From positions 6,751-70,750 of the forward strand of contig CAIYJU010000135.1 in NCBI GenBank assembly GCA_903926565.1: DNA of 64,000 nucleotides. Reading direction: 5' to 3'. The stretch comes from an uncultured Bacteroidales bacterium. Lineage in GTDB: Bacteria; Bacteroidota; Bacteroidia; Bacteroidales; FEN-979. The position numbers and the translations under genes were made by a program. Below, in pieces: positions 245-16,654 of the stretch. How positions within the stretch are numbered: the first letter of the stretch is position 1; each line of letters begins with the position of its first letter. Below the pieces are notes generated by a model that did not search any database, was not told the origin of the DNA, and saw nothing but the letters and a program-made list of their open reading frames with translations.

Positions 245-1325
245 CATCTGAAATTGCTGATTTGTACTCCCTGACCCTGGCTAAAAACTCATCGAACAGG
301 AACCGCGTATCGGTTGGCCCGCCGGAAGCTTCCGGGTGGAACTGGGTCGAAAAAAAGGGTTTTGTCTTATGACAGATCCCTTCGTTGGTGTGGTCGTTGA
401 GATTGGTAAAAAGCGGTTCCCATTCATCTCCGAGCGTGGCATCATCCACTGCAAACCCATGGTTCTGGGAGGTTATATAGGCACGGTTTGTACCCACTTT
501 TAAAACCGGCTGGTTGTATCCCCGGTGTCCGTATTTCAGTTTATAGGTTTTTGCGCCGCCCGCCAGTGACAGCAGCTGGTTTCCCAGGCAGATGCCAAAG
601 ATGGGCCGGTCCTGCTGAATGGCTTTTTCAAGATGCTTAATAGTGGCTGAACACATTTGCGGATCGCCGGGGCCATTGGAAATCACCAGTCCATCGTAGT
701 AATCTCCGGTAAAGTCATAATCCCACGGAACCCTGACCACGGTGGCACCAAGGTTGAGCAGGCAACGGATGATGTTGTTCTTCACCCCGCAATCAACCAG
801 CATAATCGTTGCATCCCCACCGGGATAGACCTGTTTTTCTCTGACACTTACGGATGCGACAAGGTTCACTTTATTGGGATCATAAAAATCAATCTCGCCT
901 TGGTCATTTTGCACCAGTTTCCCCAGCATGGTACCGCGTTCACGCAGTACTTTTGTCAGGGCCCGTGTATCGATGCCACAGATGCCGGGCACGTTGTGCT
1001 CTTTCAGCCAGTCTGAAAGGCTTTCCAGCGCATTCCAGTGACTGTATTCTGCTGAGTAACCGGCAACGACAAGCCCGGAAATATGCACTTTGTCGGATTC
1101 AAAATACTTTGAAAGCTGCTCTTTGATCATCCTGCCAGGAACACCATAATTTCCAATGAGGGGATAGGTTAAAACCAGGATCTGGCCTTTATATGAGGGG
1201 TCGGTGAGGCTTTCGGGGTAGCCGGTCATGGCCGTGTTGAAAACCACCTCTCCGGCTGCAGCCCCCTGCGCCCCGAAAGACCGGCCTGTAAAACAGGTTC
1301 CGTCATCTAAAATAAGCTGCGGCAT
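228..1325 (-). CDS. carA: carbamoyl-phosphate synthase small (glutamine amidotransferase) subunit
   Basis: 365 aa. CarA-type N-terminus (FTGRSFGA...[30 protein letters not shown]) and class-I GATase nucleophile motif [10 protein letters not shown]. Followed by carB. Confidence 0.95.
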
Positions 1326-1352
1326 GTTGCGGGATTAATTTTGTCTGGTCTG

Positions 1353-1360
1353 CAAAATTA
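1353..1360 (-). promoter_or_regulatory. candidate Bacteroidota -7 box (TAATTTTG) for carA
   Basis: The minus strand reads TAATTTTG (TAnnTTTG consensus) about 27 nt upstream of the carA ATG. No clear -33 TTTG at canonical spacing. Confidence 0.3.
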
Positions 1361-1400
1361 ATGCAAACTGAACAACGATGCCAGAATTTTAATCAACAGG

Positions 1401-1778
1401 TTACATCAGGTCACCCAGCGGACCCAGGTTGATGTTCAAATCCCGATCGGTGAGGTTAAAATGTTTTTTCAGCTCCTCCATCTTCATTTCCAGCTTCATC
1501 AGCGTTTCGCCAAGCCGTTCAATTTCCTCTTCCGATAACGAACCGCCGTCGACTCTTCGCATGGCCTGTTTTTCAACCAGTTTCCGGATAAGTTCGACAA
1601 GGGTAAGCACCAGTTTCGCCAGTCCGGAATCTGCATTTTCTGGCGTAAGCTTCAGTCTTGAATCTTCAGCTTTGGATGCCAGTTTACCGATCTCCTCTGA
1701 TATTCCATCGAACGACCCGGTGTTGAACAGTATTTTATTTTCACTCATGCAAGGACTATTGAATTTTGATTTCAACAA
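1401..1778 (-). CDS. gvpK: gas vesicle protein GvpK
   Basis: GLAKLVLTLVELIRKLVEKQAMRRVDGGSLSEEEIERLGETLMKLEMKMEELKKHF...LGPLGDLM is the GvpK signature. The true start is probably the internal Met at 1748 (MSENKIL), which removes the 23-nt overlap with the upstream gene. Confidence 0.9.
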   Translation of the reverse strand: MLKSKFNSPCMSENKILFNTGSFDGISEEIGKLASKAEDSRLKLTPENADSGLAKLVLTLVELIRKLVEKQAMRRVDGGSLSEEEIERLGETLMKLEMKMEELKKHFNLTDRDLNINLGPLGDLM

Positions 1779-2511
1779 AATTATAGGGGGGCCAGGGCCC
1801 GGTAAGGATAAAGTTTAATCCCTGATGTTTATTCTGCAAATCCTGAACGGAGCGGACCAACTGAATTTCAACATCTTTATCAAGTAAAAATACTGCATCG
1901 ATGATGTTCTTTGCAGAGGCCATTTTTTTAAATCTGCTTTCCGCGCATAACAGGGCAAGACTTACGGTGATCTCTGCAATGACTGTATCAGCGTAATCAA
2001 CAAGCAGCTCTTCAAGCCTGTGTTCTTTCAGCTTTTTATTGATATATTCCCGATACGCTGAAATTGTGATGCCCGGGTCAGCGGGCGGGCTGAGGACAGC
2101 CTCTGATTTCATCCGCAGTTCTGCCGCCAATTTTTCGGAATCACAGAATATTTTCAATCCGAATTCTTGTTTGTTTTCAACCCGGTCGAGGTTCTGAAGA
2201 AATTCATCCCGGTTACGGACAAGCATTTCCAAGATTGCACCGGATGATTCCAGGGTTGAACCAAATCGCATTGGAAGAACCGGATACCGCTGAAACAGCG
2301 CATCGATCACGCCGGCATACTCAATGGCCAGAGATTTGTCTGCAGTAAAATCACATCTTTCTATCTCGCCGGTTACGGCAGCAATTTCATCATGGAAAAC
2401 AGCAAACAAATCAGCACCTCCAAGGCCTTTCATCCCCGCCAGAAGTGAAGTTAGCCCGTCCTGATTGTGTTTGACAGATACAACGGCATATATCATCTTC
2501 TGCATTTCCAT
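1756..2511 (-). CDS. GvpF/GvpL family gas vesicle protein (paralog 5)
   Basis: 251 aa. The N-terminus (IYAVV...) and the C-terminal LTGPWPPYNFV motif are typical of GvpF/L. Confidence 0.85.
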   Translation of the reverse strand: MEMQKMIYAVVSVKHNQDGLTSLLAGMKGLGGADLFAVFHDEIAAVTGEIERCDFTADKSLAIEYAGVIDALFQRYPVLPMRFGSTLESSGAILEMLVRNRDEFLQNLDRVENKQEFGLKIFCDSEKLAAELRMKSEAVLSPPADPGITISAYREYINKKLKEHRLEELLVDYADTVIAEITVSLALLCAESRFKKMASAKNIIDAVFLLDKDVEIQLVRSVQDLQNKHQGLNFILTGPWPPYNFVEIKIQ

Positions 2512-2523
2512 GTTCAGGTTGAT

Positions 2524-2730
2524 TTATTTCTCCGTGATCATCTTGCCCGCCTTCAACTGTTCCATGGTCTCGACAGAACTCAGCATTAATTTTAAGCCGA
2601 GATAAACCAGGTCAACATCTGCAACCGAGATAACAATATCGCCCGTGAGGATGACACCTTTGTTAAGGACCCTGTCGAGCAATTCAAGGATGGTAATGTC
2701 CTTCGAACGGTCAATTACATTATCATACAT
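2524..2730 (-). CDS. small GvpA-family protein (GvpS/GvpM/GvpJ-like minor structural protein)
   Basis: 68 aa. ITILELLDRVLNKGVILTGDIVISVADVDLVYLGLKLMLSSVE matches the GvpA-fold core. The start shares 1 nt with the upstream stop (TAATG). Confidence 0.85.
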   Translation of the reverse strand: MYDNVIDRSKDITILELLDRVLNKGVILTGDIVISVADVDLVYLGLKLMLSSVETMEQLKAGKMITEK

Positions 2731-3524
2731 TACTGATTCTCTTTAATGGAGACAAAGCTGAATGGCGGCCACGGCCCGGTTCCTTCAAGTTCAAAACCGA
2801 TCCCGGCATACTTTTTCTGTAACCGGCCAAGGAGTGAAACAAATTCAATGGTTTTATCTTTAGGCAGAAGAAATGCGGCATTCAGGATCATCTTGTCATT
2901 TCTTCCCGAAAATTCTTTTGGAATAATATTAATCAGTTTGGCAGATGCGCTGAGTGCATTAAATTCATTGAAAAATTCCTGTCCGTAACTCTTGGATAAC
3001 CTGTCGATTTCAAGGTCAATCAAATCCGCTTTTTTCCTGGTTAACAGGAACGCCTTCCCCGGCGAGCTTGCCATAATCTGGTATTCGAGTTCGGCTGCTT
3101 CATGGCTCAAATTATCTATCTGTGCCTTCATGACATCCTGGTTACAGTAAAGTTTGACTGCCCATTCCTCCTTCCATTCAACAAGAAGGAGGTTTTGCAC
3201 AATTGCATTTGAGTATTCGCCCATGAATTTTTTCAGTGATTCTTCAGACCGATAGATTGTACCAAAATTGAAAGGAATGACGGTATGGTCCTCCATCAGC
3301 ATGCTGATAATCGTAACATGCGACCGAACATTCAAATCGAGCCAGGCAAGATCTGACAACTTTTTTTTCAGGTTTTCTTCCGAAAAGTCGCATTCCTGAA
3401 CATTTTTCACAACGGCGTAAAACCCTCCAGAACTTACAACCTGCAAACCTTCAAACTCCGGCCTTCCGCCAGGTTCTGACATACTTGCGGAAACGCAATA
3501 GGCATAAATCAATTCCCTGTTCAT
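2730..3524 (-). CDS. GvpF/GvpL family gas vesicle protein (paralog 4)
   Basis: 264 aa. LIYAYCV... N-terminus, MILNAAFLLPKDK motif, C-terminal GTGPWPPFSFV. Confidence 0.85.
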   Translation of the reverse strand: MNRELIYAYCVSASMSEPGGRPEFEGLQVVSSGGFYAVVKNVQECDFSEENLKKKLSDLAWLDLNVRSHVTIISMLMEDHTVIPFNFGTIYRSEESLKKFMGEYSNAIVQNLLLVEWKEEWAVKLYCNQDVMKAQIDNLSHEAAELEYQIMASSPGKAFLLTRKKADLIDLEIDRLSKSYGQEFFNEFNALSASAKLINIIPKEFSGRNDKMILNAAFLLPKDKTIEFVSLLGRLQKKYAGIGFELEGTGPWPPFSFVSIKENQ

Positions 3525-3577
3525 TACATTGGTAAAATTAGCCCCGTTACAACAACATTTCCTGTAATTAAATGCGT

Positions 3578-3850
3578 CTATTGAGAAACGCTGTCCATCC
3601 CTTCAAAGGAATTGAGTCTTTCGAAGGCGGTTATTTCCAGTTTATCATCCATCTTCACCAAATAAAAAAGCCTTACCTGTTTCGGCGGGAGGTTCATTGA
3701 TTTCAGGAAGGAATCATCCTCATAAACCTCGGCGATGGAATTCCAGTTCTCCTGAACCTTCTCAATTTTAATAACCGTAACGTCGTAACAGTTAATATTC
3801 TCTTTCAGGAAATTAACCACTGTTTTTTTCACATCGATAATATTGCTCAT
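3578..3850 (-). CDS. GvpO-like small protein
   Basis: 90 aa. The segment VTVIKIEKVQENWNSIAEVYED...LFYLVKMDDKLEITAFERL has the same layout I recall for haloarchaeal GvpO (..EGWRTVVEVVER...YEITLD..G.VTGYE..). Called from similarity by eye only. Confidence 0.5.
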   Translation of the reverse strand: MSNIIDVKKTVVNFLKENINCYDVTVIKIEKVQENWNSIAEVYEDDSFLKSMNLPPKQVRLFYLVKMDDKLEITAFERLNSFEGMDSVSQ

Positions 3851-3918
3851 TGTCTCCTCCAGTTATTTTATGTTTTCATAGTCACAGGGATGGTTTGCGG
3901 GTCTGAATGTATCCGGTG

Positions 3919-4155
3919 CTATCTGTTTTGTTTATCGGCTCTGATCCTTTCAAGTAATTTCAACAACTCGTCTTCTCTTTCGTCGTATTCCTCTTCGTTA
4001 ATTTCATCCATTTCAAATTTCAGCTGCAGGGCCATCAGCCTCTCCTTGATGGCTCCTTCATCCGACATTTCCCTGTCGATCACTTCATTTATTTTCTTCC
4101 CGATAAAAATAACTCCTTTTAACGGAGCCAACAGGATGTCGTCAATTAAAAACAT
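3919..4155 (-). CDS. gvpG: gas vesicle protein GvpG
   Basis: 78 aa. MFLIDDILLAPLKGVIFIGKKINEVIDRE...EINEEEYDEREDELLKLLE is the GvpG pattern. 1-nt gap to the upstream gene. Confidence 0.8.
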   Translation of the reverse strand: MFLIDDILLAPLKGVIFIGKKINEVIDREMSDEGAIKERLMALQLKFEMDEINEEEYDEREDELLKLLERIRADKQNR

Positions 4156-4156
4156 G

Positions 4157-4939
4157 TTAAACTCCTTTAGTCTGGATTACAAGGTTGACAAAATTATAGG
4201 GAGGCAGCGTTCCGACGTATTTGAACGTCATCAATTTCCCGTATTTTTCGTCGAGGTCGGTCACGGCCTTGTCGAAGTCCGGCTCCACCGTGTTTTTTAT
4301 GAGAAATGCCGCGTTAAGTATCATCATTTCGCCATAATTGTCGTTGATTTTCTGGTCGTCTGAAAGCGGAGTAAGAACATCCATGATCATGTTTTTGTAA
4401 TTTCCCGTCTCCTTCTTCAGCGCTTCGGCAACCATTTCGCCAATTTTCATGCGCTGATAATGTGTTTTATCGACGGGCAGGTTGATCAGTTTTCCGCGCA
4501 ATGTTTTTATTTCATCATATTTTTCAATGATACTTTCGTACAACGGGGCTTCATGTGCAAGTACCTTCAGGCCCAGTTCCTTCTTCCCATCCATTTTAAG
4601 AAGAAGGTCGTCAAATTTTTTATATTCCTTTGCCAGGATGTTCAGAAGGCCTGAATCATCGTCATATTCGGAAATGGTTGAAAACCGCACCGGGAGCACG
4701 GTGAATTGCTTCATCACCTCCTCCAGCACCTTTTCATGCGTTGTCATGTTAACCCTCCTGGCTTCATATTGTATGACCGGCGAATTACTTACAACAGCAG
4801 TGACATCCTTGTAATTGATGCCATACACCCGGTCGGAGCGGACACCAATTCCGATGGGTCCGAATTCGATCGGGCCGGAATGCCTGATAATCCCGTAAAT
4901 GTACTTTCCTTCCTTTGGTATTCCAGCTGCTTCGCTCAT
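4157..4939 (-). CDS. GvpF/GvpL family gas vesicle protein (paralog 3)
   Basis: 260 aa. KYIYGII... N-terminus, MILNAAFLIKN motif, C-terminal GTLPPYNFVNL. Confidence 0.85.
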   Translation of the reverse strand: MSEAAGIPKEGKYIYGIIRHSGPIEFGPIGIGVRSDRVYGINYKDVTAVVSNSPVIQYEARRVNMTTHEKVLEEVMKQFTVLPVRFSTISEYDDDSGLLNILAKEYKKFDDLLLKMDGKKELGLKVLAHEAPLYESIIEKYDEIKTLRGKLINLPVDKTHYQRMKIGEMVAEALKKETGNYKNMIMDVLTPLSDDQKINDNYGEMMILNAAFLIKNTVEPDFDKAVTDLDEKYGKLMTFKYVGTLPPYNFVNLVIQTKGV

Positions 4940-4961
4940 ATAATGATTCGATTTATATTAG

Positions 4962-5735
4962 TTACAATTCCCATTTTTCAGGAAATATTTTAAGGTCAAT
5001 AAAATTAAAGATCGGCAGGGGTGCGGTATAAACAAAGTCGCTCCGATCCTGGTAAGTCGCGCCAATACCGGCCATGATGTTGTCAAATTCGATCTCCCTG
5101 CCGCTGTTGACCAGGAAGGCAGTATTCATGAACACCGCATCGCTGCTTGTTTTATTGTGCTTATATTCGAACACCGACCGGCGAAATGCATCAATAATGT
5201 TGTCGGACTCCTCCGCTTTCTTTTCAAGCAGAAGGCGTTCGACCATATGACCCGCTTCGTCTATCTTCATGTTCCTCTCCTTTGAGTCGCCCAGTACTTC
5301 AATTTCAGCCCTGAGCTTTTGAAGTTCAACGTGTTGCCGGTCGATTTCCTGGTAGATGACACCCATGTTTTTCCAGGTTCCCCGCACATTCAGTTCCACC
5401 TTGTTTTCGAATTGCTTCAGCAGTTCCATAAACTCACTGTACCTGCGGTTCAGGAGATTCCTGATCTCATCCGGGGTTGCTGCGATGGTGCCGAACCTGA
5501 TGGGCAGGATGCTTCTGAATTCCTTCATCACCTCTTCTATCACTTTCTGGTGGGCCAGCATGTTTTCGGGGTTGACGACAAACCGACTTAGCGGATGATC
5601 ACTCACCACCATGCACAAGCCTTCGAACCCGATGGTTGAGACAAGGTCTGCACGTCCGCCCACGCCTATCGGCCCCAGGTTGATGTCATAATCTGATGCA
5701 ATGATGCAATAAATGTATTTTCCGTCGCGCTGCAT
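4962..5735 (-). CDS. GvpF/GvpL family gas vesicle protein (paralog 2)
   Basis: 257 aa. KYIYCIIAS...GPIGVGGR...VSDHP, MNTAFLVNS motif, C-terminal PLPIFNFIDL. Confidence 0.85.
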   Translation of the reverse strand: MQRDGKYIYCIIASDYDINLGPIGVGGRADLVSTIGFEGLCMVVSDHPLSRFVVNPENMLAHQKVIEEVMKEFRSILPIRFGTIAATPDEIRNLLNRRYSEFMELLKQFENKVELNVRGTWKNMGVIYQEIDRQHVELQKLRAEIEVLGDSKERNMKIDEAGHMVERLLLEKKAEESDNIIDAFRRSVFEYKHNKTSSDAVFMNTAFLVNSGREIEFDNIMAGIGATYQDRSDFVYTAPLPIFNFIDLKIFPEKWEL

Positions 5736-5736
5736 A

Positions 5737-6777
5737 TTAATCCTTTATTTTAACCAAAATCAAATTCCCGGCAACATCTTCCTTCGCCAGGGATATTACT
5801 TCATCTTTAACCGACTGTCTGACTGAAGCAGCATAGTCAAGCAGGGAGTGGTAGGCCTCAAGGATGATGTTGAAATTCTCAGTATCACTGCTGTCGTGAT
5901 TGTTGTCGGGATGAAATTGCTTTGCTTTTTCCAGGTAGGCCCTTTTTATCTCCTGCTCGGATATTTTCTCCCTGACACCCAGCGCTTTCCGTGCCTGATC
6001 TACCTTGTCGGCATTCAACGCAACAACCTCCAGCGTGAAAAAACTGTAACAGGGCAACGGGCCTATCAGTTTAAAATTCAGGACCCCCTGGTATTTTTCG
6101 TCAAGCATGTCAATTGCATGCTCAAACTTTTCCCTTTTATTCCTGTTTATTAAAAATGCAGAATTTAAGATCATCTCGTCATTCATCACTTCATGCATTT
6201 TGATATCGAGGCCGTAAGGGGATAATACATCCAGCACCTTCAGCTCAACATCCTTATTTTCGGTATCCAACCTCTCTTTTATCAGCATACCTACTTTTAC
6301 CTGATCAACTTTTGTCAGGGCATGATTGTTTTGCAAGAGTTCGACTTTCAGCGCATTGATTTCGGGATGGGTGGAAATATCCTGAAGCAGCCCGGGAAAA
6401 TCACCCCATGTTACAACCAGGTCTATTTCAGTCAGGTACTCAATCTTCTTCAGGGCATCTATGATCAGATCATGACCACAGGTAAGAATTTTGAGCACCT
6501 CATCCGTTGAAGTTACGATGGTGCCAAGCCTCATTGGGAGGATCATGGTGAATCCCTTCCGCTGGAGTTCTTCGATGGTTTCCTGGTGATGGACCAGCAA
6601 ATAAGCCAGGGATTCCCTGTCTGAAAAATTGACTTCGGAGCTGTCTCTTTCTGAAACAATGGCCGAAATATTTTGAAACGTAACCGCATAAACTCCCGAA
6701 TTTTCAAGAGTTTGAAATTGGGTTGTACCATAAAAATTGGGCACAATCCCATAGATGTATAATCCTTTTGCTGTCAT
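5737..6777 (-). CDS. GvpF/GvpL family protein fused to a C-terminal DnaJ-type J-domain
   Basis: 346 aa. Residues 1-250 are GvpF/L-like (LYIYGIV..., MILNSAFLINRNK, GPLPCYSFFTL). Residues about 258-320 read ARKALGVREKISEQEIKRAYLEKAKQFHPDNNHD..ENFNIILEAYHSLLD, a J-domain. The HPD tripeptide is at nt 5913-5905, verified on the DNA. Confidence 0.8.
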   Translation of the reverse strand: MTAKGLYIYGIVPNFYGTTQFQTLENSGVYAVTFQNISAIVSERDSSEVNFSDRESLAYLLVHHQETIEELQRKGFTMILPMRLGTIVTSTDEVLKILTCGHDLIIDALKKIEYLTEIDLVVTWGDFPGLLQDISTHPEINALKVELLQNNHALTKVDQVKVGMLIKERLDTENKDVELKVLDVLSPYGLDIKMHEVMNDEMILNSAFLINRNKREKFEHAIDMLDEKYQGVLNFKLIGPLPCYSFFTLEVVALNADKVDQARKALGVREKISEQEIKRAYLEKAKQFHPDNNHDSSDTENFNIILEAYHSLLDYAASVRQSVKDEVISLAKEDVAGNLILVKIKD

Positions 6778-6839
6778 ATCAGTTGGTTGGTTGAATAAAC
6801 CCTCCGGGTATTAAAAACCCGGAAGGTTTCGGGTTCCGC

Positions 6840-8999
6840 TTACTTCTTCGTTATGTTTTGCTTCAATACCAGTTGTATTGCTTCTTCAAAATGTGTTTCC
6901 AAAATTGATATTTCACCAGAATTCACCTTGCCATTGTCCCTGTTTTTTTCAATCAGTTCCCGGATGGCAAGCATTGCAGCTTTGCGGCATACAAATTCGA
7001 TATCCGACCCCGTCATGGTATCGGTTTTAAGAGCGAGCTTCGCGATGTTTACTTTTTTCCCAAGGGGTTTGTTCCTTGTATGTATATGGAATATCTGCTC
7101 CCTGGTTTTCACATCCGGCAATGGCAATTCGAAGATCAGGTCGAACCGGCCGCTTCTGAGCAGGGCGGGATCTATCAAATCGATCCTGTTGGTTGCTGCG
7201 AGTACAATAACGCCTTTCAAATCCTCAATCCCATCCATTTCTGTAAGAAACTGCCCGATAACTCTTTCAATTACGCCGGAACCTGAGCCATCGTTGCTGC
7301 GCCTGGGTGTCAGACTGTCAATTTCGTCGAGGAAGAGGATGCATGGAGATGCCTGCTTTGCCATCCTGAAGAGTTCGCGTACCCCTTTTTCCGATTCACC
7401 GATATAACGGCTCAGGATCTGGGGCCCTTTTACTGAAATGAAATTCACGCCGCTTTCGCTTGCCAGCGCTTTGGCCAGGTATGTTTTGCCGGTTCCCGGT
7501 TTCCCGTGAAGGATAATTCCCTTGGGGGGCCGTGTATCAGCTTTCTTAAACAGTTCAGCATACTGGAGCGGCCATTCCACTGTCTCTTTCAGTGCCTCCT
7601 TTATTTCGTCAAGGCCGCCAACATCTTCCCATTTCACATCAGGCACCTCTACGAAAACCTCCCTGATTGCCGAAGGTTCCACCTCTTTCATGGCATCCGT
7701 AAAGTTGTCCATGGTCACTTCCAGCGCCATCAATATTTCGTATGGAATTTCGGCCATCGCAAAATCGATTTGCGGCAATATTTTCCGCAGGGCGGTCATG
7801 GCGGCTTCCCGGGCCAGCGCTTCAAGATCGGCACCCACAAATCCGTGGGTGATTTCGGCCAGTTTTTCCATATCCACATCCATCGACAGCGGAATCCCCC
7901 GGGTGTGGATGAGGAGAATTTCCAGCCTTCCCTTTTTGTCGGGGATGGAGATTGAAATTTCACGGTCAAACCTTCCGGGTCTTCTCAGTGCGGGATCAAT
8001 GGAATTAGGGATGTTGGTCGCGCCGATCACGATGACCTTCCCTCTCGATTCAAGGCCATCCATCAATGACAACAGTTGGGCGACAACACGTTTTTCAACC
8101 TGTTTTTCTCCCCCCATCTCCTCCCTTTTGGGGGCAATGGCATCAATTTCATCGATAAAGATAATGGAAGGCGCATGGGCCTGGGCCTCCTCAAAAAGTT
8201 TACGGATCCGGCCTTCGCTCTCCCCGTAAAATTTACCCATGATCTCCGGGCCGGAGATGTTGATAAAATAGGCATCTGTTTCCTGTGCAACCGCCCTGAC
8301 AATGAGTGTTTTTCCGGTTCCCGGAGGCCCGTAGAGGAATACCCCCTTGGGTGGCTGGATCCCCAGCCGGTCAAATATTTCCGGATACTTGAGGGGAAGT
8401 TCAATCATCTCCCTGATACGCTGAACCTGGTTGCCAAGTCCGCCGATATCCTCGTAAGAGACCTTGCTCCGGTGCTCTCCGTCCTGCTTTGCCAGTTCAA
8501 GCTGAAAAATGGTATTCGGGTGGATCAGCACGATCCCCTCCGGGTTGACACCGGTAACCGTATAATTCACTGAGCGTGAGCCGAATAAATTCGCCCTCAC
8601 TTTATCGCCTTTTATCACAGGCAGCCCACTGAACAAAGAACCGATATATTTTGAGTCATCAGCCTTGAACAAAGAGCCTGATTTAGTGTCTGGCTTTAAC
8701 TTTATTTTTATCGCCTGGCGGAAGGTTGCTTTTTCAACAGTCACTTTCTCATCGATCCCTGCCTGGGCATTTTCCCTGGTAATCCCGTCAATTTGAATGA
8801 GGCGCTTGTCCCTGTCTTCCGGATAACAAGGCATGATTTTTACCGGTGTTGCACGCTTGCCTTCAATCACAACAAGGTCGCCACTTTCCAGGTCAAGCAA
8901 TTTCATGTCTTTCGGGTCGATCCTTGCGATGGCCCTTCCAACGTCCTTTACCAGGGCTTCCTTTACACGGAGGATTATGTCGCTTTTTGTTTTAGTCAT
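6840..8999 (-). CDS. Cdc48/VCP/VAT-like AAA+ ATPase (Cdc48-N domain plus two AAA+ modules)
   Basis: 719 aa. Cdc48-type N-domain ([40 protein letters not shown]...). Two Walker A motifs ([18 protein letters not shown]) and two Walker B motifs ([20 protein letters not shown]). Confidence 0.9.
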
Positions 9000-9008
9000 T
9001 GCTGAAAT

Positions 9009-9944
9009 TTATTCAAACAGGCACATTTTCAACTTATTCAGAGCATCCAGCCCTTTTATCTCTTCTGCGAACCTTTGCACTTCAACTTTGTTTAAATGAC
9101 GAAAGGTTTCGTTGATGCCGGTTAAATAAGGCAATTGGCTGGCTTTGCTCCGCCTGCAGAATCCGCATTCATCCGAAACCATCACATTGTTTACAATGAG
9201 CTGTCGTGCAACGATACCAGAACTGGCAAGAATCGACAGCAATCTTTCTGTTTCCCTCATTGCCATTGCTTCCGGAATGCAAACCGGGATAAATTCACAC
9301 CGGGTTGCATCGCGCAGGATGTTTTCAATCCTTTTGACAGTCCTTTTCAGGCTGAGTAAAAGCACATCCACGTCATCATGCTGGTAGGATCCTGAAAAAC
9401 TGGTGATCATGTACCGGTATTTCCACCTCATTCTTGCAGCCACCTTGATCCAGTCGTCCAATAACTTCGGAGAAGATATCAACCTTAAGGCATGCCCGGT
9501 GGGTGCAGTATCCACAACATATTTATCGTATTCCCCCTGTTCCATGAAATCGGTGATGGTTTTAAAACTCATCACCTCGTCGATGCCGGGAATCGACAGG
9601 GCAAGCATCTCTTCAATATCCTGGTTATCAAGATTTGTTGAAGTTTCGAGCAACTTTTTCAGTTCAGCCTGATGCGCACTGATAAATACTGAAAGCGCCT
9701 CGTCGGCAAATACTTCAATCGCAGAGAGGTTGGGGCTGCCATCTACTTTAACTACCTGGAATCCAATTTTCTGACCAAGGCAATCCGACACGGAATGCGC
9801 CGGATCAGTTGAGATAAGCAATGTTTTAAAATTTTCAGCCAGTGACATGGCTGTGGCAACGGCACAACTGGTTTTTCCAACACCGCCTTTTCCGCCAAAA
9901 ATGAGAAGTTTCAGGTCGCTGTTATCTAAGCCCTTCAGTCCCAT
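9009..9944 (-). CDS. ArsA/Get3(TRC40)-family P-loop ATPase
   Basis: 311 aa. Deviant Walker A GGKGGVGKTS, STDPAHSVSD, switch II DTAPTGHALRL, and a Get3-style CxxC (SDECGFCRR). 4-nt gap to hsp20 and 9-nt gap to the cdc48-like gene. Confidence 0.85.
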   Translation of the reverse strand: MGLKGLDNSDLKLLIFGGKGGVGKTSCAVATAMSLAENFKTLLISTDPAHSVSDCLGQKIGFQVVKVDGSPNLSAIEVFADEALSVFISAHQAELKKLLETSTNLDNQDIEEMLALSIPGIDEVMSFKTITDFMEQGEYDKYVVDTAPTGHALRLISSPKLLDDWIKVAARMRWKYRYMITSFSGSYQHDDVDVLLLSLKRTVKRIENILRDATRCEFIPVCIPEAMAMRETERLLSILASSGIVARQLIVNNVMVSDECGFCRRSKASQLPYLTGINETFRHLNKVEVQRFAEEIKGLDALNKLKMCLFE

Positions 9945-9948
9945 TGCG

Positions 9949-10467
9949 CTATTTTTTTATCCTGATCTCAAGGATGCCGTTTGTAAATTTATGCCTTAGA
10001 TTTTTCCTTTCGGCTTTTTCAGGAAGCAGCACTTCCTTGCGGTATGACCTGCTTTTGTTGACTGCTGAAATTTCAAGGATATCTTCTTTCAAATCAATAA
10101 CAATGTCATTTTCCTCGATTCCCGGCATTTCTGCAATAATCACAAGTTCATTCTTTTCATTAAAGATGTCGGTAATGGGTTCCCGTTCTTCATCCACTTT
10201 GGGTCCCTCGGGTGTTTTTTTGATATTGCCGAAAGTTTCTACTTTCGGGCTTCCGCCAACTGCCGTGTTTATTGTAAAGCCATAGACACCTTTCATTCCT
10301 TTTTTGATGTGGTCAAAATTGAGCTCCCCTTCCTTTTTAATGCCACCCTTTTCATCGAGTTTCCCTGCAAGGTCAACAAGTTTCTCAATACCTTTGAACA
10401 GATCACCAAGTCCGAAAAATCCGGTATCGGCTTCGTCCTTTTTTTTATTATTCTTATCGTTGTCCAT
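9949..10467 (-). CDS. Hsp20/alpha-crystallin family small heat-shock protein (GvpH-position protein)
   Basis: 172 aa. C-terminal alpha-crystallin domain ELVIIAEMPGIEENDIVIDLKEDILEISA...RKEVLLPEKAE...KFTNGILEIRIKK. Confidence 0.8.
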   Translation of the reverse strand: MDNDKNNKKKDEADTGFFGLGDLFKGIEKLVDLAGKLDEKGGIKKEGELNFDHIKKGMKGVYGFTINTAVGGSPKVETFGNIKKTPEGPKVDEEREPITDIFNEKNELVIIAEMPGIEENDIVIDLKEDILEISAVNKSRSYRKEVLLPEKAERKNLRHKFTNGILEIRIKK

Positions 10468-10529
10468 TGTGAATCATGTTAATACGGTTTATAGAAAAAC
10501 TATTCCAGCCTCCGCCTGAACGGGGGAAG

Positions 10530-10829
10530 TTACTCCGGCCTGTTCATCGCCTCCAGTTTCTCCAGACGCGACACCAGCTCTTCCTGGTGCTGCATCAGCT
10601 CCTTCTCCCTGGCTTTTGTTGAAAGGTACGTATCTTCCTGCCACCAGTTGATCCCCATCTCCATCGCCTTGTCGACCGAAGCGATCAGCAACCTGATTTT
10701 GATGGTCAGCAGATCAATATCCGCTATCTGAATTTTTATATCTCCTGCAATTACGATTCCCTTGTCGAGGACTCTTTCAAGAATATCGGCAAGACCTGTC
10801 GCCTGAATGGAGTGGGTAGGTTCTGACAT
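10530..10829 (-). CDS. gvpJ: gas vesicle protein GvpJ (GvpA family with C-terminal extension)
   Basis: 99 aa. LADILERVLDKGIVIAGDIKIQIADIDLLTIKIRLLIASVDKAMEMGINWW is the GvpJ-type core. Confidence 0.85.
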   Translation of the reverse strand: MSEPTHSIQATGLADILERVLDKGIVIAGDIKIQIADIDLLTIKIRLLIASVDKAMEMGINWWQEDTYLSTKAREKELMQHQEELVSRLEKLEAMNRPE

Positions 10830-10839
10830 TGCATTTTTT

Positions 10840-11154
10840 TTAATAATCTATTGACATGGTCTTCCATGCTTTCTCATCATCCTTCTTTGGTTTTTTACTC
10901 TTTTCTGCAGGTTTGACGGAATGCATGTCCCCGGCTTTTTCATCATAATAGGCCTGGATCTCTTTCAGCCTGTCCTGGATGATTTCAAGTCTCAGTAAGA
11001 TCCGGACCTCTTCACTTTTCAGCCGGGTTCTCTCCTTTTCGAACATGTACAATTTTATAAAATCCGAATCTTCCTTGTTTGGAATACCCGATTTAACGAC
11101 ATTCTGCATGCTCTTGATGCTCTGAAGTCCCTTTAGTGCAGTTGATATTGGCAT
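10840..11154 (-). CDS. small coiled-coil protein directly downstream of gvpN (possible GvpV-position analog), function unknown
   Basis: 104 aa. Heptad-like central segment (LYMFEKERTRLKSEEVRILLRLEIIQDRLKEIQ) and a Lys-rich tail. Tightly packed in the operon. No family recognised with confidence. Confidence 0.55.
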   Translation of the reverse strand: MPISTALKGLQSIKSMQNVVKSGIPNKEDSDFIKLYMFEKERTRLKSEEVRILLRLEIIQDRLKEIQAYYDEKAGDMHSVKPAEKSKKPKKDDEKAWKTMSIDY

Positions 11155-11182
11155 GACATTGATTTTTTAATGCGGATGGATG

Positions 11183-12118
11183 TTATTGCGCAATTTTTAA
11201 ACTGGTGTATTGTTCTATCAGTTCGTTCACGATGAATTTCACCTTTTCCTGGTTGGTTTTTGAGCCAATCCTGCTGGTTTCTGACGTAAGAATATCCTGG
11301 CAGATTTTCCGGAACATATCTTTTGATTTCGAGGGTGTTGTTTTCAGGGTTGCCAGTGTTTTGGCAATCATGATGGAACCGCGGATGGTCGGATCGAATT
11401 CCGTTTTCCCTGATTCACGCAAACCTCTCACAATTTTAACGATAATTTCGGTATCCTTTAACGACAATTGCGATTTGGCCCTGGTAATCTGCAATTCGGT
11501 TTCATAGTCGAAATGGTCCAGGTCCATGGTCACCATGCGGTCGCGCAGTGCATCCTGCGTGCGGTTAACACCGGCATACTCTTCAGGGTTTGACGTAAAG
11601 ATGGCACGGAATTCAGGGTGTACCTTCATATAGTAATCCTCCTCCTTTGCTGCCGATGTGCTTAACATCCGCTCCTGAAGAATCGGAAGCAGGATATTGT
11701 TGGCCTCAGGACGTGAACGCGTAAATTCATCGTAGATCAGGGTGAACCCGTTTTTCACTGCGATGGTTAAACGGTTGTTCACCCATTGCTTGGTCATGTC
11801 CTCTTCATACTTATGAACAGAATGGATGAATTTGTCGTCAAGCTTTTTATATTTATACCCCTGTTCACTTCCGATCAAATCGGAAGTTTTATACTCGGCA
11901 TCACCATGGATAATGACAACAGGCCGGCCGATTTTACTTGCCAGGTGCATGGCTACCGTCGTTTTCCCGGTACCTGAAGGCCCCCTGAAATGAACCGGGA
12001 ATCCAGCCTGGATATACGTAAGGCCGCGGCTGGTGATGTCCCTTATGTAATCCGTTTCTACAAAATTGGACATCGGCTTCAGTTCAAGCACGGTATTCAT
12101 CTCATTGTTGTTGCTCAT
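11183..12118 (-). CDS. gvpN: gas vesicle protein GvpN (MoxR/CbbQ-like AAA+ ATPase)
   Basis: 311 aa. FVETDYIRDITSRGLTYIQAGFPVHFRGPSGTGKTTVAMHLA... and Walker B LIYDEFTRS are typical GvpN features. Confidence 0.9.
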   Translation of the reverse strand: MSNNNEMNTVLELKPMSNFVETDYIRDITSRGLTYIQAGFPVHFRGPSGTGKTTVAMHLASKIGRPVVIIHGDAEYKTSDLIGSEQGYKYKKLDDKFIHSVHKYEEDMTKQWVNNRLTIAVKNGFTLIYDEFTRSRPEANNILLPILQERMLSTSAAKEEDYYMKVHPEFRAIFTSNPEEYAGVNRTQDALRDRMVTMDLDHFDYETELQITRAKSQLSLKDTEIIVKIVRGLRESGKTEFDPTIRGSIMIAKTLATLKTTPSKSKDMFRKICQDILTSETSRIGSKTNQEKVKFIVNELIEQYTSLKIAQ

Positions 12119-12163
12119 TGTTGGTATAGTTTGTGCAAATGTGCTGGTTAATTTTGATTTGTA

Positions 12164-12343
12164 TTAAAAAGGCAGGTTCGGCAGCTGCTTCAGCGTCTCC
12201 TCCCAGATGGTCCTGGCTTCCTCAATCTCCTTTGTTATCTCTTCCCTTGCTGTCAGGAACGCGATCTTCCTTTCCCTGAACCTTTCCAGTGCAGCCTGCC
12301 GTTTGATCATGCTGTTCCTGATACCCGCTCCGACGTTTTTCAT
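12164..12343 (-). CDS. unlisted 59-aa ORF between the zinc-finger gene and gvpN (hypothetical)
   Basis: Below the ORF-track length cutoff. Hand translation: MKNVGAGIRNSMIKRQAALERFRERKIAFLTAREEITKEIEEARTIWEETLKQLPNLPF, stop TAA at 12166-12164. Same strand as the operon, 15 nt after the upstream stop and 45 nt before the gvpN ATG. Confidence 0.35.
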   Translation of the reverse strand: MKNVGAGIRNSMIKRQAALERFRERKIAFLTAREEITKEIEEARTIWEETLKQLPNLPF

Positions 12344-12358
12344 TTTCAGATACCCTGA

Positions 12359-12673
12359 TCAGGCGCCAAACCCTTTGCCTTTGCATTGCGTGCACGGCAG
12401 GTTATCTCCTGATTTGCCAGTCCCTTTGCATTTCAGGCACACATTGCTGCCGGCAACGTGATTGCTCCCTTTTCCGCTACACACAATACACGGCACCCTT
12501 GCTCCCAGCGGGTTTTTACCGGACCCGGCACAAAAAACGCATTTCATCAAGGGTTTCTCAACATTCACACGTCCGAGGCCATTGCATGCCAGGCAATGTG
12601 AGATTGAGGAAAGCAGGTCAAAAGGATCCTTGCCTGTGCCGCTGCAAAACGGGCAATTAAAAACTTCTATCAT
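12359..12673 (-). CDS. stand-alone DnaJ-type cysteine-rich zinc-finger protein (six CxxCxGxG repeats)
   Basis: 104 aa containing CPFCSGTG, CLACNGLG, CVFCAGSG, CIVCSGKG, CLKCKGTG and CTQCKGKG. This is the CxxCxGxG repeat of the DnaJ central domain, with no J-domain or C-terminal domains. Confidence 0.8.
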   Translation of the reverse strand: MIEVFNCPFCSGTGKDPFDLLSSISHCLACNGLGRVNVEKPLMKCVFCAGSGKNPLGARVPCIVCSGKGSNHVAGSNVCLKCKGTGKSGDNLPCTQCKGKGFGA

Positions 12674-12713
12674 GGGGCAAAATCATTTGGAAAATGAATG
12701 ACGAAGAACCGGG

Positions 12714-13922
12714 TTATTTCAACGGGAAGTAAATGTTGTCAATTTTCTGCACTTTACCCTCGTCGAGCAAACCTTTGGCGGTAAAGCCAAGTTTCATGCG
12801 TGTTTCTCCCAGTGGTGCTTCCATCTCCGAGATCTTTACGCCCTTGGGATGTTTATTAATAAAATCCAGCACCTTATCTTCAAGTTTCAGGGGCTCTTCC
12901 TTAAATGTGGCAAATGCAAGAACTTCCTGGGCCGGAACGGCACTTACTGCCTCAGCCGGGGCTGCCTTTGCAGGGGCTGCAGGGGCCTCTTTTTTCGCCT
13001 CCTGTTTTTCAGCTTTCTTCGGTGCCTGTTTGGGTGCGGGAACAACGCCAGTTTTCCTGATATGGTCCATCGCACTTTTCATTTTATTCCATTCGGCCGA
13101 TGCCTCAACCCGGTTTTGCAGCAGATCATCCAGCATTGCACCGGTTGATTTCTGTACATCCCTGACCTCTTTCCGGATATCTTTAATAGAGACATGAATG
13201 CCTTTCATGATTGCATTAAAATCGCTGATCCGTTCGTTTTCGCCTTTGGCAAGATCTTTTCTCAGTTTCTGGGCCATTTTCTGGTTTTCCCTGCCGATTT
13301 CCGACAATCTTTTCTGGAACCCGGAAAGCAGGGTCCTCGTGTACTCAACCCTTTCTCCAAGGTTCTTGGCAAGTTCCGCTCTCAGTTCTGCCGACATGTC
13401 CTGATGTTCCTTTTCAAACCGGTCGAGCATATCATTCGTATTCAGGAAAATTGCCGAAACTTCATCATTGATACTTTTGATATCAGCATTGATGTTTGTC
13501 ATGAGGGCATCAAACTCCTTCATACGTGTTTTTTCATTTTGCGCCCGTCCGGCTCTTTCTTCAGCAAAGGACTTCCCAAGTTCCTCAGCCATCTGCGACC
13601 GCTCAACGGTAAATTCATTGATCATGTTAAACGTGGAAGTTTGAATCGCCACTACTTCCTTCTGGATGGAGGCAATTGTTCCATGGATTCCTGTCATTAA
13701 TCCCTTGAAGTTGCCCAGCCGTTCTTTCTCCCCGCGGGCGAGGCCTTTTCTTAATGCAGCAGCATTTGCATTTAAAGCGGCAGCCATCTCCTGGTGGTCC
13801 TTGCGGAAACCGTCAAGCGTTATCTGCACATCGTTAACAAGTTCTTCATTTTCCCTGATGCGCTGCCTGAATGATGCAAGCAACTCTTCTGTCAGGTTCT
13901 TCATGTCTGATGCTAGTCCCAT
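12714..13922 (-). CDS. repeat-containing coiled-coil protein with Pro/Ala/Lys linker and small C-terminal globular (winged-helix-like?) domain; candidate non-canonical GvpC analog
   Basis: 402 aa. Internal repeats are visible by eye: RKGLARGEKERLGNFKGLMTGIHGTIASIQKEVVAIQTST vs RKDLAKGENERISDFNAIMKGIHVSIKDIRKEVRDVQKST vs RAQNEKTRMKEFDALMTNINADIKSINDEVSAIFLNT. Also FRKDHQEMAAAL vs FEKEHQDMSAEL. These are followed by APKQAPKKAEKQEAKKEAPAAPAKAAPAEA and a roughly 60-aa tail. Confidence 0.75.
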   Translation of the reverse strand: MGLASDMKNLTEELLASFRQRIRENEELVNDVQITLDGFRKDHQEMAAALNANAAALRKGLARGEKERLGNFKGLMTGIHGTIASIQKEVVAIQTSTFNMINEFTVERSQMAEELGKSFAEERAGRAQNEKTRMKEFDALMTNINADIKSINDEVSAIFLNTNDMLDRFEKEHQDMSAELRAELAKNLGERVEYTRTLLSGFQKRLSEIGRENQKMAQKLRKDLAKGENERISDFNAIMKGIHVSIKDIRKEVRDVQKSTGAMLDDLLQNRVEASAEWNKMKSAMDHIRKTGVVPAPKQAPKKAEKQEAKKEAPAAPAKAAPAEAVSAVPAQEVLAFATFKEEPLKLEDKVLDFINKHPKGVKISEMEAPLGETRMKLGFTAKGLLDEGKVQKIDNIYFPLK

Positions 13923-13964
13923 GTTGTTATCTCCTATTTTAGAATTATTGATATGTTACCTGAA

Positions 13965-14621
13965 TTAATTGATCTCCTTGATAATTTGATTTTTTATGCT
14001 TTTTATATCTTTTACCTGGATCTGATCGCCTTTTTCGAGCAAACTTTCCAGGCACTCCATCATCCTGCCGTGCATGTTCTGAAAATCCATGAAGGTCTTC
14101 ATTACTGTTTCCTTCCTCATTTCCTGTACTTTAGAAACCTGGGAAAGTTGCTCCTTGATGATGTTGATTTTTTCGGTGGCATCCTGCGATGTAATGTCCC
14201 TGATGCCGAGCAGGCTTAATTTAAGCGACTGGGCAGTCTCTTTCTGGGATTCGATAAATGAGAGGAACAAAATTTCAGCGGCCCGTTCTTTTTCGTCGAG
14301 CGCGCAAAGAATGCCTGACATCATCGAATAATAATCCTTTTTACGGAGGGATCCGTTTTTTGCCATAATTTCACAAATTCTGAAATTCAGGACTTCCCGC
14401 TCCTTTTTCAGATCGTTGAGAGAATTATGCACGTTGTCGAACAGGCAGTGCGATGATTCTGTAATATTTTCAGATGACTGGAAAGCTGTTTGAATTTTTT
14501 GAATGCGGGTTTCGTAGGAGGTTATGATGTTGTCAAAAAAACCATCGATGTTTAATTCGGGCAGTGGATTCATTCTTGGTAGTTTATTTGCAGGTTTTCG
14601 GGAAAGATGACTTTTTGACAT
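13965..14621 (-). CDS. coiled-coil protein, distant paralog of the 402-aa repeat protein; function unknown
   Basis: 218 aa. Shares motifs with the neighbour: TSYETRIQK vs ASFRQRIRE, and MAKNGSLRKKDYYSMMSGI vs LAKGENERISDFNAIMKGI. It is the first gene after gvpA. The start may instead be the Met at codon 17. Confidence 0.7.
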   Translation of the reverse strand: MSKSHLSRKPANKLPRMNPLPELNIDGFFDNIITSYETRIQKIQTAFQSSENITESSHCLFDNVHNSLNDLKKEREVLNFRICEIMAKNGSLRKKDYYSMMSGILCALDEKERAAEILFLSFIESQKETAQSLKLSLLGIRDITSQDATEKINIIKEQLSQVSKVQEMRKETVMKTFMDFQNMHGRMMECLESLLEKGDQIQVKDIKSIKNQIIKEIN

Positions 14622-14764
14622 TCCCTCATGATAATTATCGGGCCGGGGGTTGGTGTGATCGGGATACTGCAGGCGTGGAAAAAAGAAATTCTTGGTAACT
14701 CATGCTTTCGTGAATAATCAGGGAAGGATGTTTTAGCAAGAATAGCTGTTAATCTGAATGCAAA

Positions 14765-14968
14765 TTAAGCTGCTTTTGCAGTTAATCCGATGGCTTCAGC
14801 ATACTTCAGGTATGTTTCAACAGAGGCAACAACGATTCTTGCTTCAATTGCAAGCAATTCGATACCTACCAAAGAAACTCTTACCCATGCATCAACTACA
14901 ACACCTTTGTCAAGGATACGGTCGATAACTTCAACGAGGCTTGATGATCCGATAGTCTTTTCTACCAT
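14765..14968 (-). CDS. gvpA: major gas vesicle structural protein GvpA
   Basis: 67 aa. [55 protein letters not shown] is near-canonical GvpA. An SD-like GGAG sits about 9 nt upstream of the ATG, which is unusual for this window. Confidence 0.97.
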
Positions 14969-15144
14969 TTTTTTAATCTCCTATATTAAATAAAAAAAAC
15001 CGTGCTTTACATGAGGGACGGTTTACCTCTTGTGCCATGAGTATATACAAAGGGTGAGCCGTAAAAGAGATAATAACCAGGAAAACCCGTTTAAATGAGT
15101 TAAGCCCCTGAAGATGAAAACAAAAAAAAGTGATTTATTTTTTC

Positions 15145-15173
15145 AGAAAAAAATTACCACACGGAATGCGTGG
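15145..15173 (-). terminator. candidate intrinsic terminator downstream of the response-regulator gene
   Basis: The minus strand reads CCACGC-ATTCC-GTGTGG (6-bp stem with one G-U) followed by TAATTTTTTTCT. It lies about 80 nt after the stop at 15255. Confidence 0.35.
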
Positions 15174-15254
15174 AAATATCAGAACAGCCGGCAATATAAT
15201 CACGTGCTGTACGCGTTATCGCGTGAAACAAACAGCCTGTTTCCCTGTATAAGG

Positions 15255-16646: not shown

Positions 16647-16654
16647 GATGCCAG

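Follow-up and report, generated by a model that had tools for sequence, protein, structure and literature searches.

A gene for a Cdc48/VAT-family double-ring ATPase of the AAA+ class (ATPases associated with various cellular activities) lies in the middle of a gas vesicle protein (gvp) gene cluster of an uncultured Bacteroidales bacterium, and it can be held with high confidence to be a dedicated component of that operon. The window, by which the whole stretch of DNA analysed is meant, is 64,000 nucleotides long (GenBank assembly GCA_903926565.1, contig CAIYJU010000135.1, positions 6,751 to 70,750 of the forward strand), and the gene, referred to as CDC48 below, occupies positions 6840–8999 of its minus strand. 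The linkage of CDC48 to gvp genes is conserved over about nine bacterial phyla, and the linked proteins form a distinct orthologous CDC48 lineage tied to gvp clusters, seen in a clade of their own, a sequence signature, and outgroups that stand beyond any gvp context.

A Cdc48/VAT-type motor

The open reading frame begins with ATG and comprises 719 codons of protein. Its parts are as follows.

6840–8999, minus strand: CDC48/VAT-family double-ring AAA+ ATPase, 719 amino acids (aa), by TIGR01243, Pfam and Protein Data Bank (PDB) match
8475–8999, minus strand: N domain, aa 1–175, with Nn double-psi-barrel and Nc parts, by the Pfam sequence profiles CDC48_N and CDC48_2
7635–8429, minus strand: D1 AAA module, aa 191–455, with Walker A (224–231), pore loop-1 (256–259), Walker B (279–286), sensor-1 (326–329) and Arg fingers (339–347)
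8100–8105, minus strand: K299-Q300, an insertion of two residues in the region of D1 pore-loop 2 that marks the gvp-linked clade
6930–7634, minus strand: D2 AAA module, aa 456–690, with Walker A (499–506), pore loop-1 (531–534), Walker B (554–561), sensor-1 (601–604) and Arg finger (614–620)
6840–6929, minus strand: short C-terminal tail ending in QNITKK, without HbYX

The NCBIfam model TIGR01243 ('CDC48 family AAA ATPase') matches at 907.2 bits against a cut-off of 802.65 and spans aa 9–711 of the 719. Pfam profiles place CDC48_N (PF02359; 89.7 bits, cut-off 35.1) at aa 10–92 and CDC48_2 (PF02933; 38.7 bits, cut-off 22.4) at aa 111–171, and they recover two AAA modules (PF00004) and two AAA_lid_3 domains (PF17862), likewise above their cut-offs. 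Among proteins of solved structure in the PDB the top match is VAT of Thermoplasma (5g4f; full length, 754 bits), with plant CDC48A and human p97 next at ∼633 bits. The Walker A motifs read GPPGTGKT (aa 224, D1) and GKPGTGKT (aa 499, D2), the Walker B motifs IIFIDEID (aa 279, D1) and ILFLDEID (aa 554, D2), sensor-1 GATN in D1 and AATN in D2, and the Arg-finger segments RRPGRFDRE in D1 and LRSGRFD in D2. An earlier reading of this DNA (the original prediction) had proposed a full Cdc48 architecture, with an N domain, D1 and D2 and with intact Walker A and B motifs; TIGR01243, Pfam and motif reading all bear this out. As far as a sequence can tell, the product is a bona fide Cdc48/VAT-type motor, for every feature by which membership of the CDC48 family can be judged from sequence is present.

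These features are under strong constraint. Across 77 full-length orthologues no change occurs in the D1 Walker A, in either Walker B or sensor-1 motif or in the Arg-finger motifs; in the D2 Walker A only the second and fifth positions vary, and mean identity within D1 is 95%. The pore loops and the C-terminus were inspected, as the original prediction had suggested. Pore loop-1 is aromatic in both rings (K-F-Y-G in D1, R-Y-I-G in D2). The proteasome-docking motif HbYX, with its penultimate tyrosine, was looked for at the C-terminus and found in 0 of 77 orthologues, nor was it found in the CDC48 proteins reached through GvpA (see below) in Chlorobiota, Verrucomicrobiota, Aminicenantales, Nitrospinae and Chloroflexi. 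Coupling of CDC48 to a proteasome was rejected on the absence of this tail.

Conserved placement beside gvp genes

A scan of one genome per species with the window's CDC48 identified relatives in 391 genomes, and the 80 best loci were taken for analysis. CDC48 has gvp-cluster neighbours in 79 of the 80, the sole exception being a 2.4-kb contig without flanks, and gvp genes stand on both sides of it in 64. The slot between the Hsp20/ArsA genes and the GvpF/L genes spans Bacteroidota, Ignavibacteria and Marinimicrobia; Bacteroidales/Prolixibacteraceae, an Algoriphagus metagenome-assembled genome (MAG), Polaribacter filamentus ATCC 700397, Ignavibacteria and Marinimicrobia share both gene order and strand. 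The Polaribacter strain is a cultured, gas-vacuolate carrier. The nearest public locus, at 99% identity, belongs to a MAG labelled Draconibacterium.

To avoid circularity, neighbourhoods anchored on GvpA, a protein conserved strongly enough for its top matches to span many phyla, were read as well. CDC48 adjoins gvp genes in eight of nine informative GvpA-anchored lineages and occupies the window's slot in seven of the nine, among them Prosthecochloris/Chlorobiota, Verrucomicrobiota, Aminicenantales, Nitrospinae, one Chloroflexi lineage and an unassigned contig (L098). An Omnitrophota contig that ends inside ArsA was left out of this scoring. The CDC48 proteins in the slot are 708–728 aa long, and their genes come right after Hsp20, with or without ArsA, and are followed by GvpF/L genes. 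Fusion of GvpF/L to a J domain (GvpF/L::J) in the gene after CDC48 recurs in Verrucomicrobiota, Aminicenantales, Nitrospinae, Chloroflexi and L098, though not in Chlorobiota. A different arrangement is found in a Chloroflexota locus (L090), where a 776-aa CDC48 and an ArsA_HSP20-domain protein are encoded divergently upstream of gvpA and no GvpF/L genes occur within 10 kb; at 14990–18028 of the same locus, two large genes, the first matching PmbA/TldD, follow the last GvpA-like gene. Two control proteins (P0122 and P0134), the nearest relatives from outside the clade at ∼50% identity, are encoded in unrelated contexts and not beside gvp genes.

With 79 of 80 loci from one direction and eight of nine lineages from the other, there is strong support for the original claim that the gvp operon includes a Cdc48-like gene besides GvpN, and the placement of this gene proves to be conserved in relatives. 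The counter-possibility raised with that claim, that the gene might belong to an unrelated conserved gene pair, stands in one half only: ArsA and Hsp20 do make up a conserved pair or trio together with CDC48, yet both of them are specific to gvp clusters and so not unrelated.

Among the genes of the cluster CDC48 ranks third in conservation (83–92% identity), behind GvpA and GvpN. GvpA itself is 97–100% identical among those related loci whose sequence includes its gene, and the GvpF/L::J fusion is far less conserved than CDC48 (39–79%). The ratio of nonsynonymous to synonymous substitution (dN/dS) of CDC48 is 0.03–0.04 with synonymous sites near saturation; for this reason the gene is no chance open reading frame, and the likeness of CDC48 across loci reflects selection and not recent transfer. 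The position of Hsp20 is constant across loci, directly upstream of ArsA/CDC48. The ArsA-like gene has been lost while CDC48 was kept in L045, L053, L086 (Verrucomicrobiota) and L093 (Chloroflexi).

Some loci show variations of their own. Four MAGs carry two CDC48 contigs each in gvp context (L004/L031, L006/L026, L005/L035 and L039/L079), which point either to a pair of gvp clusters that have a CDC48 each or to mixed bins. An extra GvpF-like gene lies upstream of Hsp20, between the genes for the 104-aa and GvpJ-like proteins described below, in L024, L053 and L069; L024 and L069 have extra GvpA-like genes too, and L024 also has a tandem second gvpA.

A distinct gvp-linked clade

In 98 of 100 neighbour-joining bootstraps the gvp-linked CDC48 proteins group into a single clade that runs from Bacteroidota to Nitrospinae. 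Its members are 62–93% identical to the window's protein; all other representatives are at most 53% identical in the full-length alignment, and none in a library of representatives taken at 50% identity exceeds 57% over matched stretches. Residues that are invariant within the clade and rare outside it are concentrated in the N domain, namely in its Nc half (D115, G120, S121, L122, L126 and A136). The K299-Q300 insertion is absent from VAT and from >90% of outgroup representatives, and it is present in the Nitrospinae, Verrucomicrobiota, Chlorobiota, Aminicenantales and L098 proteins. Plasmids of Methylocella, Rhizobium and haloarchaea carry relatives of the window's CDC48 whose identity does not exceed 52%, and none is informative on gvp linkage. 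An independent recruitment of CDC48 in Chloroflexota, for which L090 was the candidate, is not claimed: the tree does not decide the matter, the L090 protein is nearest to that of L093, which sits in the canonical slot, and the L093 protein is nearest to the core clade.

The gene cluster and its surroundings

CDC48 lies at the centre of a 19-gene gvp cluster that runs on a single strand (minus) at 1401–14968. From its first gene to its last the cluster reads as follows.

14765–14968, minus strand: GvpA, the major shell protein (Pfam Gas_vesicle)
12714–14621, minus strand: two conserved proteins without a family, of 218 aa (13965–14621) and 402 aa (12714–13922)
12359–12673, minus strand: DnaJ-type zinc-finger protein of 104 aa with six CxxCxGxG repeats (Pfam DnaJ_CXXCXGXG and motif count)
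11183–12118, minus strand: GvpN, the canonical gvp AAA+ protein, of MoxR/AAA_5 type (TIGR02640, 346 bits, cut-off 266.8)
10840–11154, minus strand: conserved 104-aa protein without a family, between GvpN and the GvpJ-like protein
10530–10829, minus strand: GvpA-related, GvpJ-like protein of 99 aa (Pfam Gas_vesicle)
9949–10467, minus strand: small heat-shock protein (sHsp) Hsp20, alpha-crystallin type (Pfam HSP20)
9009–9944, minus strand: single-domain Get3/ArsA-like ATPase of 311 aa (TIGR00345, 248 bits; Pfam ArsA_ATPase)
6840–8999, minus strand: CDC48, as above
5737–6777, minus strand: GvpF/L with a C-terminal J-domain fusion, HPD at aa 289 (Pfam GvpL_GvpF and DnaJ)
4962–5735, minus strand: GvpF/L (Pfam)
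4157–4939, minus strand: GvpF/L (Pfam)
3919–4155, minus strand: GvpG (Pfam)
3578–3850, minus strand: weak GvpO-like protein (Pfam)
2730–3524, minus strand: GvpF/L (Pfam)
2524–2730, minus strand: GvpA-like protein (Pfam)
1756–2511, minus strand: GvpF/L (Pfam)
1401–1778, minus strand: GvpK (Pfam)

GvpN is thus where the original prediction had put it, and the gaps quoted there are exact, with 9 nt separating CDC48 from the upstream Get3/ArsA-like gene and 62 nt from the downstream GvpF/L::J gene. A promoter and terminator scan of 1300–15400 detected no minus-strand terminator signal in the gaps flanking CDC48. Signal counts over that interval did not exceed those of shuffled sequence, and the sigma-70 consensus is ill-suited to Bacteroidota, so that the terminator-free gaps may be called compatible with co-transcription and nothing beyond.

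The Get3/ArsA-like protein has both the P-loop GKGGVGKT and a CGFC (CxxC) motif. Hsp20 reaches 133.9 bits against the NCBIfam archaeal Hsp20 model, under that model's cut-off of 140. No curated family in Pfam or NCBIfam matches the 218-aa, 402-aa and 104-aa proteins. The 402-aa protein is helical, with internal repeats of ∼70–80 aa and weak apolipoprotein-like matches, and it may be a GvpC-like outer scaffold. An open reading frame of similar size occupies the slot of the 104-aa protein (10840–11154) in Chlorobiota, Verrucomicrobiota, Aminicenantales, Nitrospinae and Chloroflexi; this protein is a candidate partner or adaptor.

Directly upstream of gvpA, two genes on the same strand probably encode the regulators of the cluster.

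15255–16646, minus strand: NtrC-type sigma-54 response regulator (Pfam)
16655–20059, minus strand: PAS-rich hybrid histidine kinase of 1134 aa (Pfam)

The NtrC-type gene stands beside gvpA in most related loci in which that flank is present, and likewise in Aminicenantales, Omnitrophota and L098. The remainder of the window is ordinary Bacteroidota chromosome, with type IX secretion C-terminal domains, glycosidases, carA, glyA, ppk and priA. Within it, a low-GC island at 38557–40553 on the minus strand (GC content 0.34 against ∼0.47 elsewhere) encodes an AbiEii-type AAA_21 ATPase of 430 aa that overlaps an RloB-like protein of 239 aa; it resembles a two-gene defence pair gained by horizontal transfer.

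What the motor may do

GvpA tends to aggregate and, without helpers, is proteotoxic (PMC12848028; PMC9501494). Taken together, CDC48, the sHsp, the Get3-like protein, the GvpF/L::J fusion and the DnaJ zinc-finger protein look like a dedicated GvpA proteostasis module, to judge by what they encode. VAT-type enzymes thread and unfold proteins, sHsps are holdases for aggregating proteins, J domains recruit Hsp70, Get3 shields hydrophobic segments, and GvpF binds GvpA. We therefore put forward, tentatively and at slightly less than even confidence, that CDC48 acts as a quality-control or recycling unfoldase for GvpA-family subunits. The original suggestion of extraction, disaggregation, recycling or quality control is partly supported to this extent, in that it would fit the aromatic pore loops, the tail without HbYX and the chaperone neighbours.

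Under this proposal CDC48 would be a hexameric, two-ring, substrate-threading unfoldase and a fixed part of a widespread type of gvp operon. Driven by ATP and independently of any protease, it would pull GvpA-family subunits from off-pathway aggregates, stalled chaperone complexes and collapsed shells, pass them along its aromatic pore loops and let them go in unfolded form. The J domain of the GvpF/L protein would recruit host Hsp70, and the holdases, along with GvpF/L, would redeliver released subunits to growing vesicles. The net outcome would be a private disaggregase system for GvpA, made up of sHsp, J protein with Hsp70, and AAA+ motor, in which Cdc48 takes the place of ClpB. A bolder version, in which CDC48, with loading by its N domain and pore-2 insertion, extracts GvpA from the amyloid-like lattice of collapsed or intact vesicles and a relay of Get3-like protein, sHsp and J protein re-inserts it, must be considered rather unlikely. 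If it were true, an 'extract and re-target' pathway of archaeal and eukaryotic style would operate at a gas–water interface instead of a membrane, providing ATP-driven recycling and tuning of buoyancy, and perhaps the missing ingredient for gvp expression in foreign hosts.

Several observations weigh against a dedicated unfoldase of GvpA-family subunits. Descriptions of the well-studied gas vesicle systems of Halobacterium, Anabaena, B. megaterium and Serratia include no Cdc48 (PMC9501494), for which reason the motor is not in the universal assembly mechanism and its role is perhaps lineage-specific or subtle. The substrate (GvpA, GvpJ or GvpM), the cooperation with chaperone neighbours and the disaggregation or recycling role we infer, substrate and partners from gene neighbourhood alone. 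The hexamer and its pore geometry are predicted. An AlphaFold2 model built on a shallow alignment (25 sequences, 85–91% identical) has a predicted local distance difference test score (pLDDT) of 67.6 and a predicted template modelling score (pTM) of 0.38, with the N domain at low confidence, and a Foldseek search with this low-confidence model returns p97, CDC48A and Cdc48 at the top over 715–750 columns (E ∼1e-68) at a global TM-score of just 0.40. The GvpA anchors of the reverse survey are all at least 86% identical to the window's GvpA, which biases that survey to one broad type of cluster. One GvpA-anchored locus (L097) has GvpA, GvpN and three small unassigned genes followed by unrelated genes, and is without CDC48, GvpF/L, GvpG and GvpK; it is a split or remnant cluster. 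Finally, the gvp-linked CDC48 proteins of Chloroflexi do not carry the clade signature, and although they are nearest to the clade by distance, the tree gives them no firm position.

It is also possible, if on the doubtful side, that CDC48 works within assembly itself, as an on-pathway segregase that frees GvpA, GvpJ or GvpM from their carriers (GvpF/L, Get3-like protein or sHsp) or remodels or disassembles a nucleation complex, after which subunits could enter the growing shell, with GvpN acting at another step. The mid-operon location, with chaperone genes on one side, GvpF/L on the other, short gaps and no terminator signal, would suit such a role, as would the fact that CDC48 is never lost where GvpF/L genes occur in the loci surveyed and that its conservation is very high, comparable to that of GvpN and GvpA. 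The clade-specific residues of the N domain suggest one fixed partner, and since only 5 of 15 cloned gvp clusters gave vesicles in E. coli (PMC10344784), assembly factors are incompletely understood. However, the model systems build vesicles without Cdc48 (PMC9501494), and the adjoining sHsp is a holdase typical of aggregate handling. Between an assembly segregase and a quality-control unfoldase the letters of the genes do not separate.

Active dismantling is improbable. Here CDC48 would take intact vesicles apart by pulling out subunits, or would unfold a structural brace or a regulator, and so lower buoyancy on demand, possibly handing its products to a host protease. An unfoldase of processive type, with aromatic loops in both rings, could serve this end; two-component, sigma-54 signalling appears to feed into the cluster, and carriers come mostly from stratified lakes and fens (by record titles), where vertical positioning matters. 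Yet CDC48 is apparently co-transcribed with the structural genes, and would be made while vesicles are being built; there is no evidence of a separate promoter for it, the docking motif HbYX is lacking, and the cluster has no conserved protease gene. Hardly credible at all is a passenger, that is, an archaeal-type general-stress chaperone carried with the gvp island by horizontal transfer and without a vesicle-specific task: sporadic bacterial Cdc48 homologues are indeed thought to be horizontal acquisitions from archaea (PMC6017811) and other bacterial CDC48-family genes do lie in unrelated contexts, but the slot persists over about nine phyla even though synonymous divergence is saturated, the clade stands apart with 98% support and a signature of its own, 79 of its 80 members have gvp-cluster neighbours, and CDC48 is retained where the neighbouring ArsA gene has been lost.

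Implications

What is new is that a known motor family stands in a conserved organelle-biogenesis context with a sequence signature of its own. No paper linking a Cdc48-type gene to gvp clusters was found in the Creative Commons part of PubMed Central and in bioRxiv, a scope that leaves subscription journals and supplementary figures outside, and the gvp-linked Cdc48 is very probably a so far undescribed helper in the handling of sticky GvpA. Bacterial Cdc48 proteins outside Actinobacteria have so far been noted just as sporadic horizontal acquisitions, without function (PMC6017811). If the quality-control reading is true, AAA+ biology would gain a bacterial Cdc48 that has no proteasome and whose candidate client is obvious.

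For gas vesicles, the set of unfoldase, sHsp, Get3-like protein and J-domain GvpF/L is a concrete candidate machinery for the solubility, delivery and insertion of GvpA and for the fate of collapsed vesicles, in a cluster type that is widespread in about nine phyla among bacteria of lakes, fens and the sea. The majority of cloned gvp clusters do not yield vesicles in E. coli (PMC10344784), and aggregation of GvpA is the main source of toxicity (PMC12848028). The chaperone and unfoldase set may offer helper genes for acoustic reporter constructs.

Relation to known systems

The closest counterpart of solved structure is VAT of Thermoplasma acidophilum, which works without ubiquitin machinery. 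The two share the N-D1-D2 architecture and an aromatic D1 pore loop (K-Y-Y-G in VAT, K-F-Y-G in the window's protein). They differ in the D2 pore loop-1, which is K-W-V-G in VAT and R-Y-I-G here, and in the two extra residues of D1 pore-loop 2, and the window's protein is bacterial and embedded in a gvp operon. Archaeal Cdc48 docks on the 20S proteasome by a C-terminal HbYX tail, unlike the window's CDC48, which is without one.

Eukaryotic Cdc48/p97/VCP, which as a segregase pulls proteins out of assemblies and membranes, is of the same family and domain order and is ∼44% identical over ∼715 aligned positions. It acts through ubiquitin adaptors (UBX, Ufd1-Npl4), and no gene in the window's gvp cluster has a recognisable family match to these. 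The D1 pore loop of p97 is not aromatic, in contrast to the window's CDC48, in which both rings have aromatic loops.

GvpN is likewise an ATPase of the operon and is conserved to a similar degree. Unlike CDC48 with its 719 aa, it is a single MoxR/AAA_5-type module of ∼310 aa that has neither an N domain nor a classical threading pore, and the two are homologous at the P-loop core only. Membership of CDC48 in the GvpN family was rejected, TIGR02640 not being among the best 25 of 48 NCBIfam matches.

In function, the arrangement resembles ClpB/Hsp104 with sHsp and DnaK-DnaJ, in that an sHsp, a J domain, a DnaJ zinc finger and a two-ring threading motor are encoded together. This is to be taken as a functional analogy and not as family membership. 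The latter was rejected for ClpB/Hsp100, as the best 25 of 46 Pfam and of 48 NCBIfam matches include no Clp_N or ClpB middle-domain family; AAA_2 gives a partial match of 36 bits only.

Gene clusters of the window's type have been described before: Castillo and Saier (2010, PMC2963123) saw arsA homologues and hsp20 beside gvpN, L, F, G, J, K and M, with Polaribacter irgensii, Pelodictyon luteolum and Geobacter uraniireducens among the carriers. That account differs in that it mentions no Cdc48-type gene, and its gvp-linked ArsA proteins are two-domain and ∼600 aa long, against the single-domain, 311-aa protein of the window. On the side of regulation, GvrA of Serratia is comparable to the likely regulator of the window's cluster, the NtrC-type protein at 15255–16646.

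Among bacterial members of the Cdc48 family, homologues from outside the actinobacteria group with archaeal Cdc48, and horizontal transfer has been inferred for them (Ziemski et al. 2018, PMC6017811). Cpa, the actinobacterial Cdc48-like protein, is like the window's CDC48 a bacterial member of the family, but it belongs to an actinobacterial clade with proteasome interaction, whereas the gvp-linked clade is found in phyla without an indicated proteasome partner and has a defined operon context.

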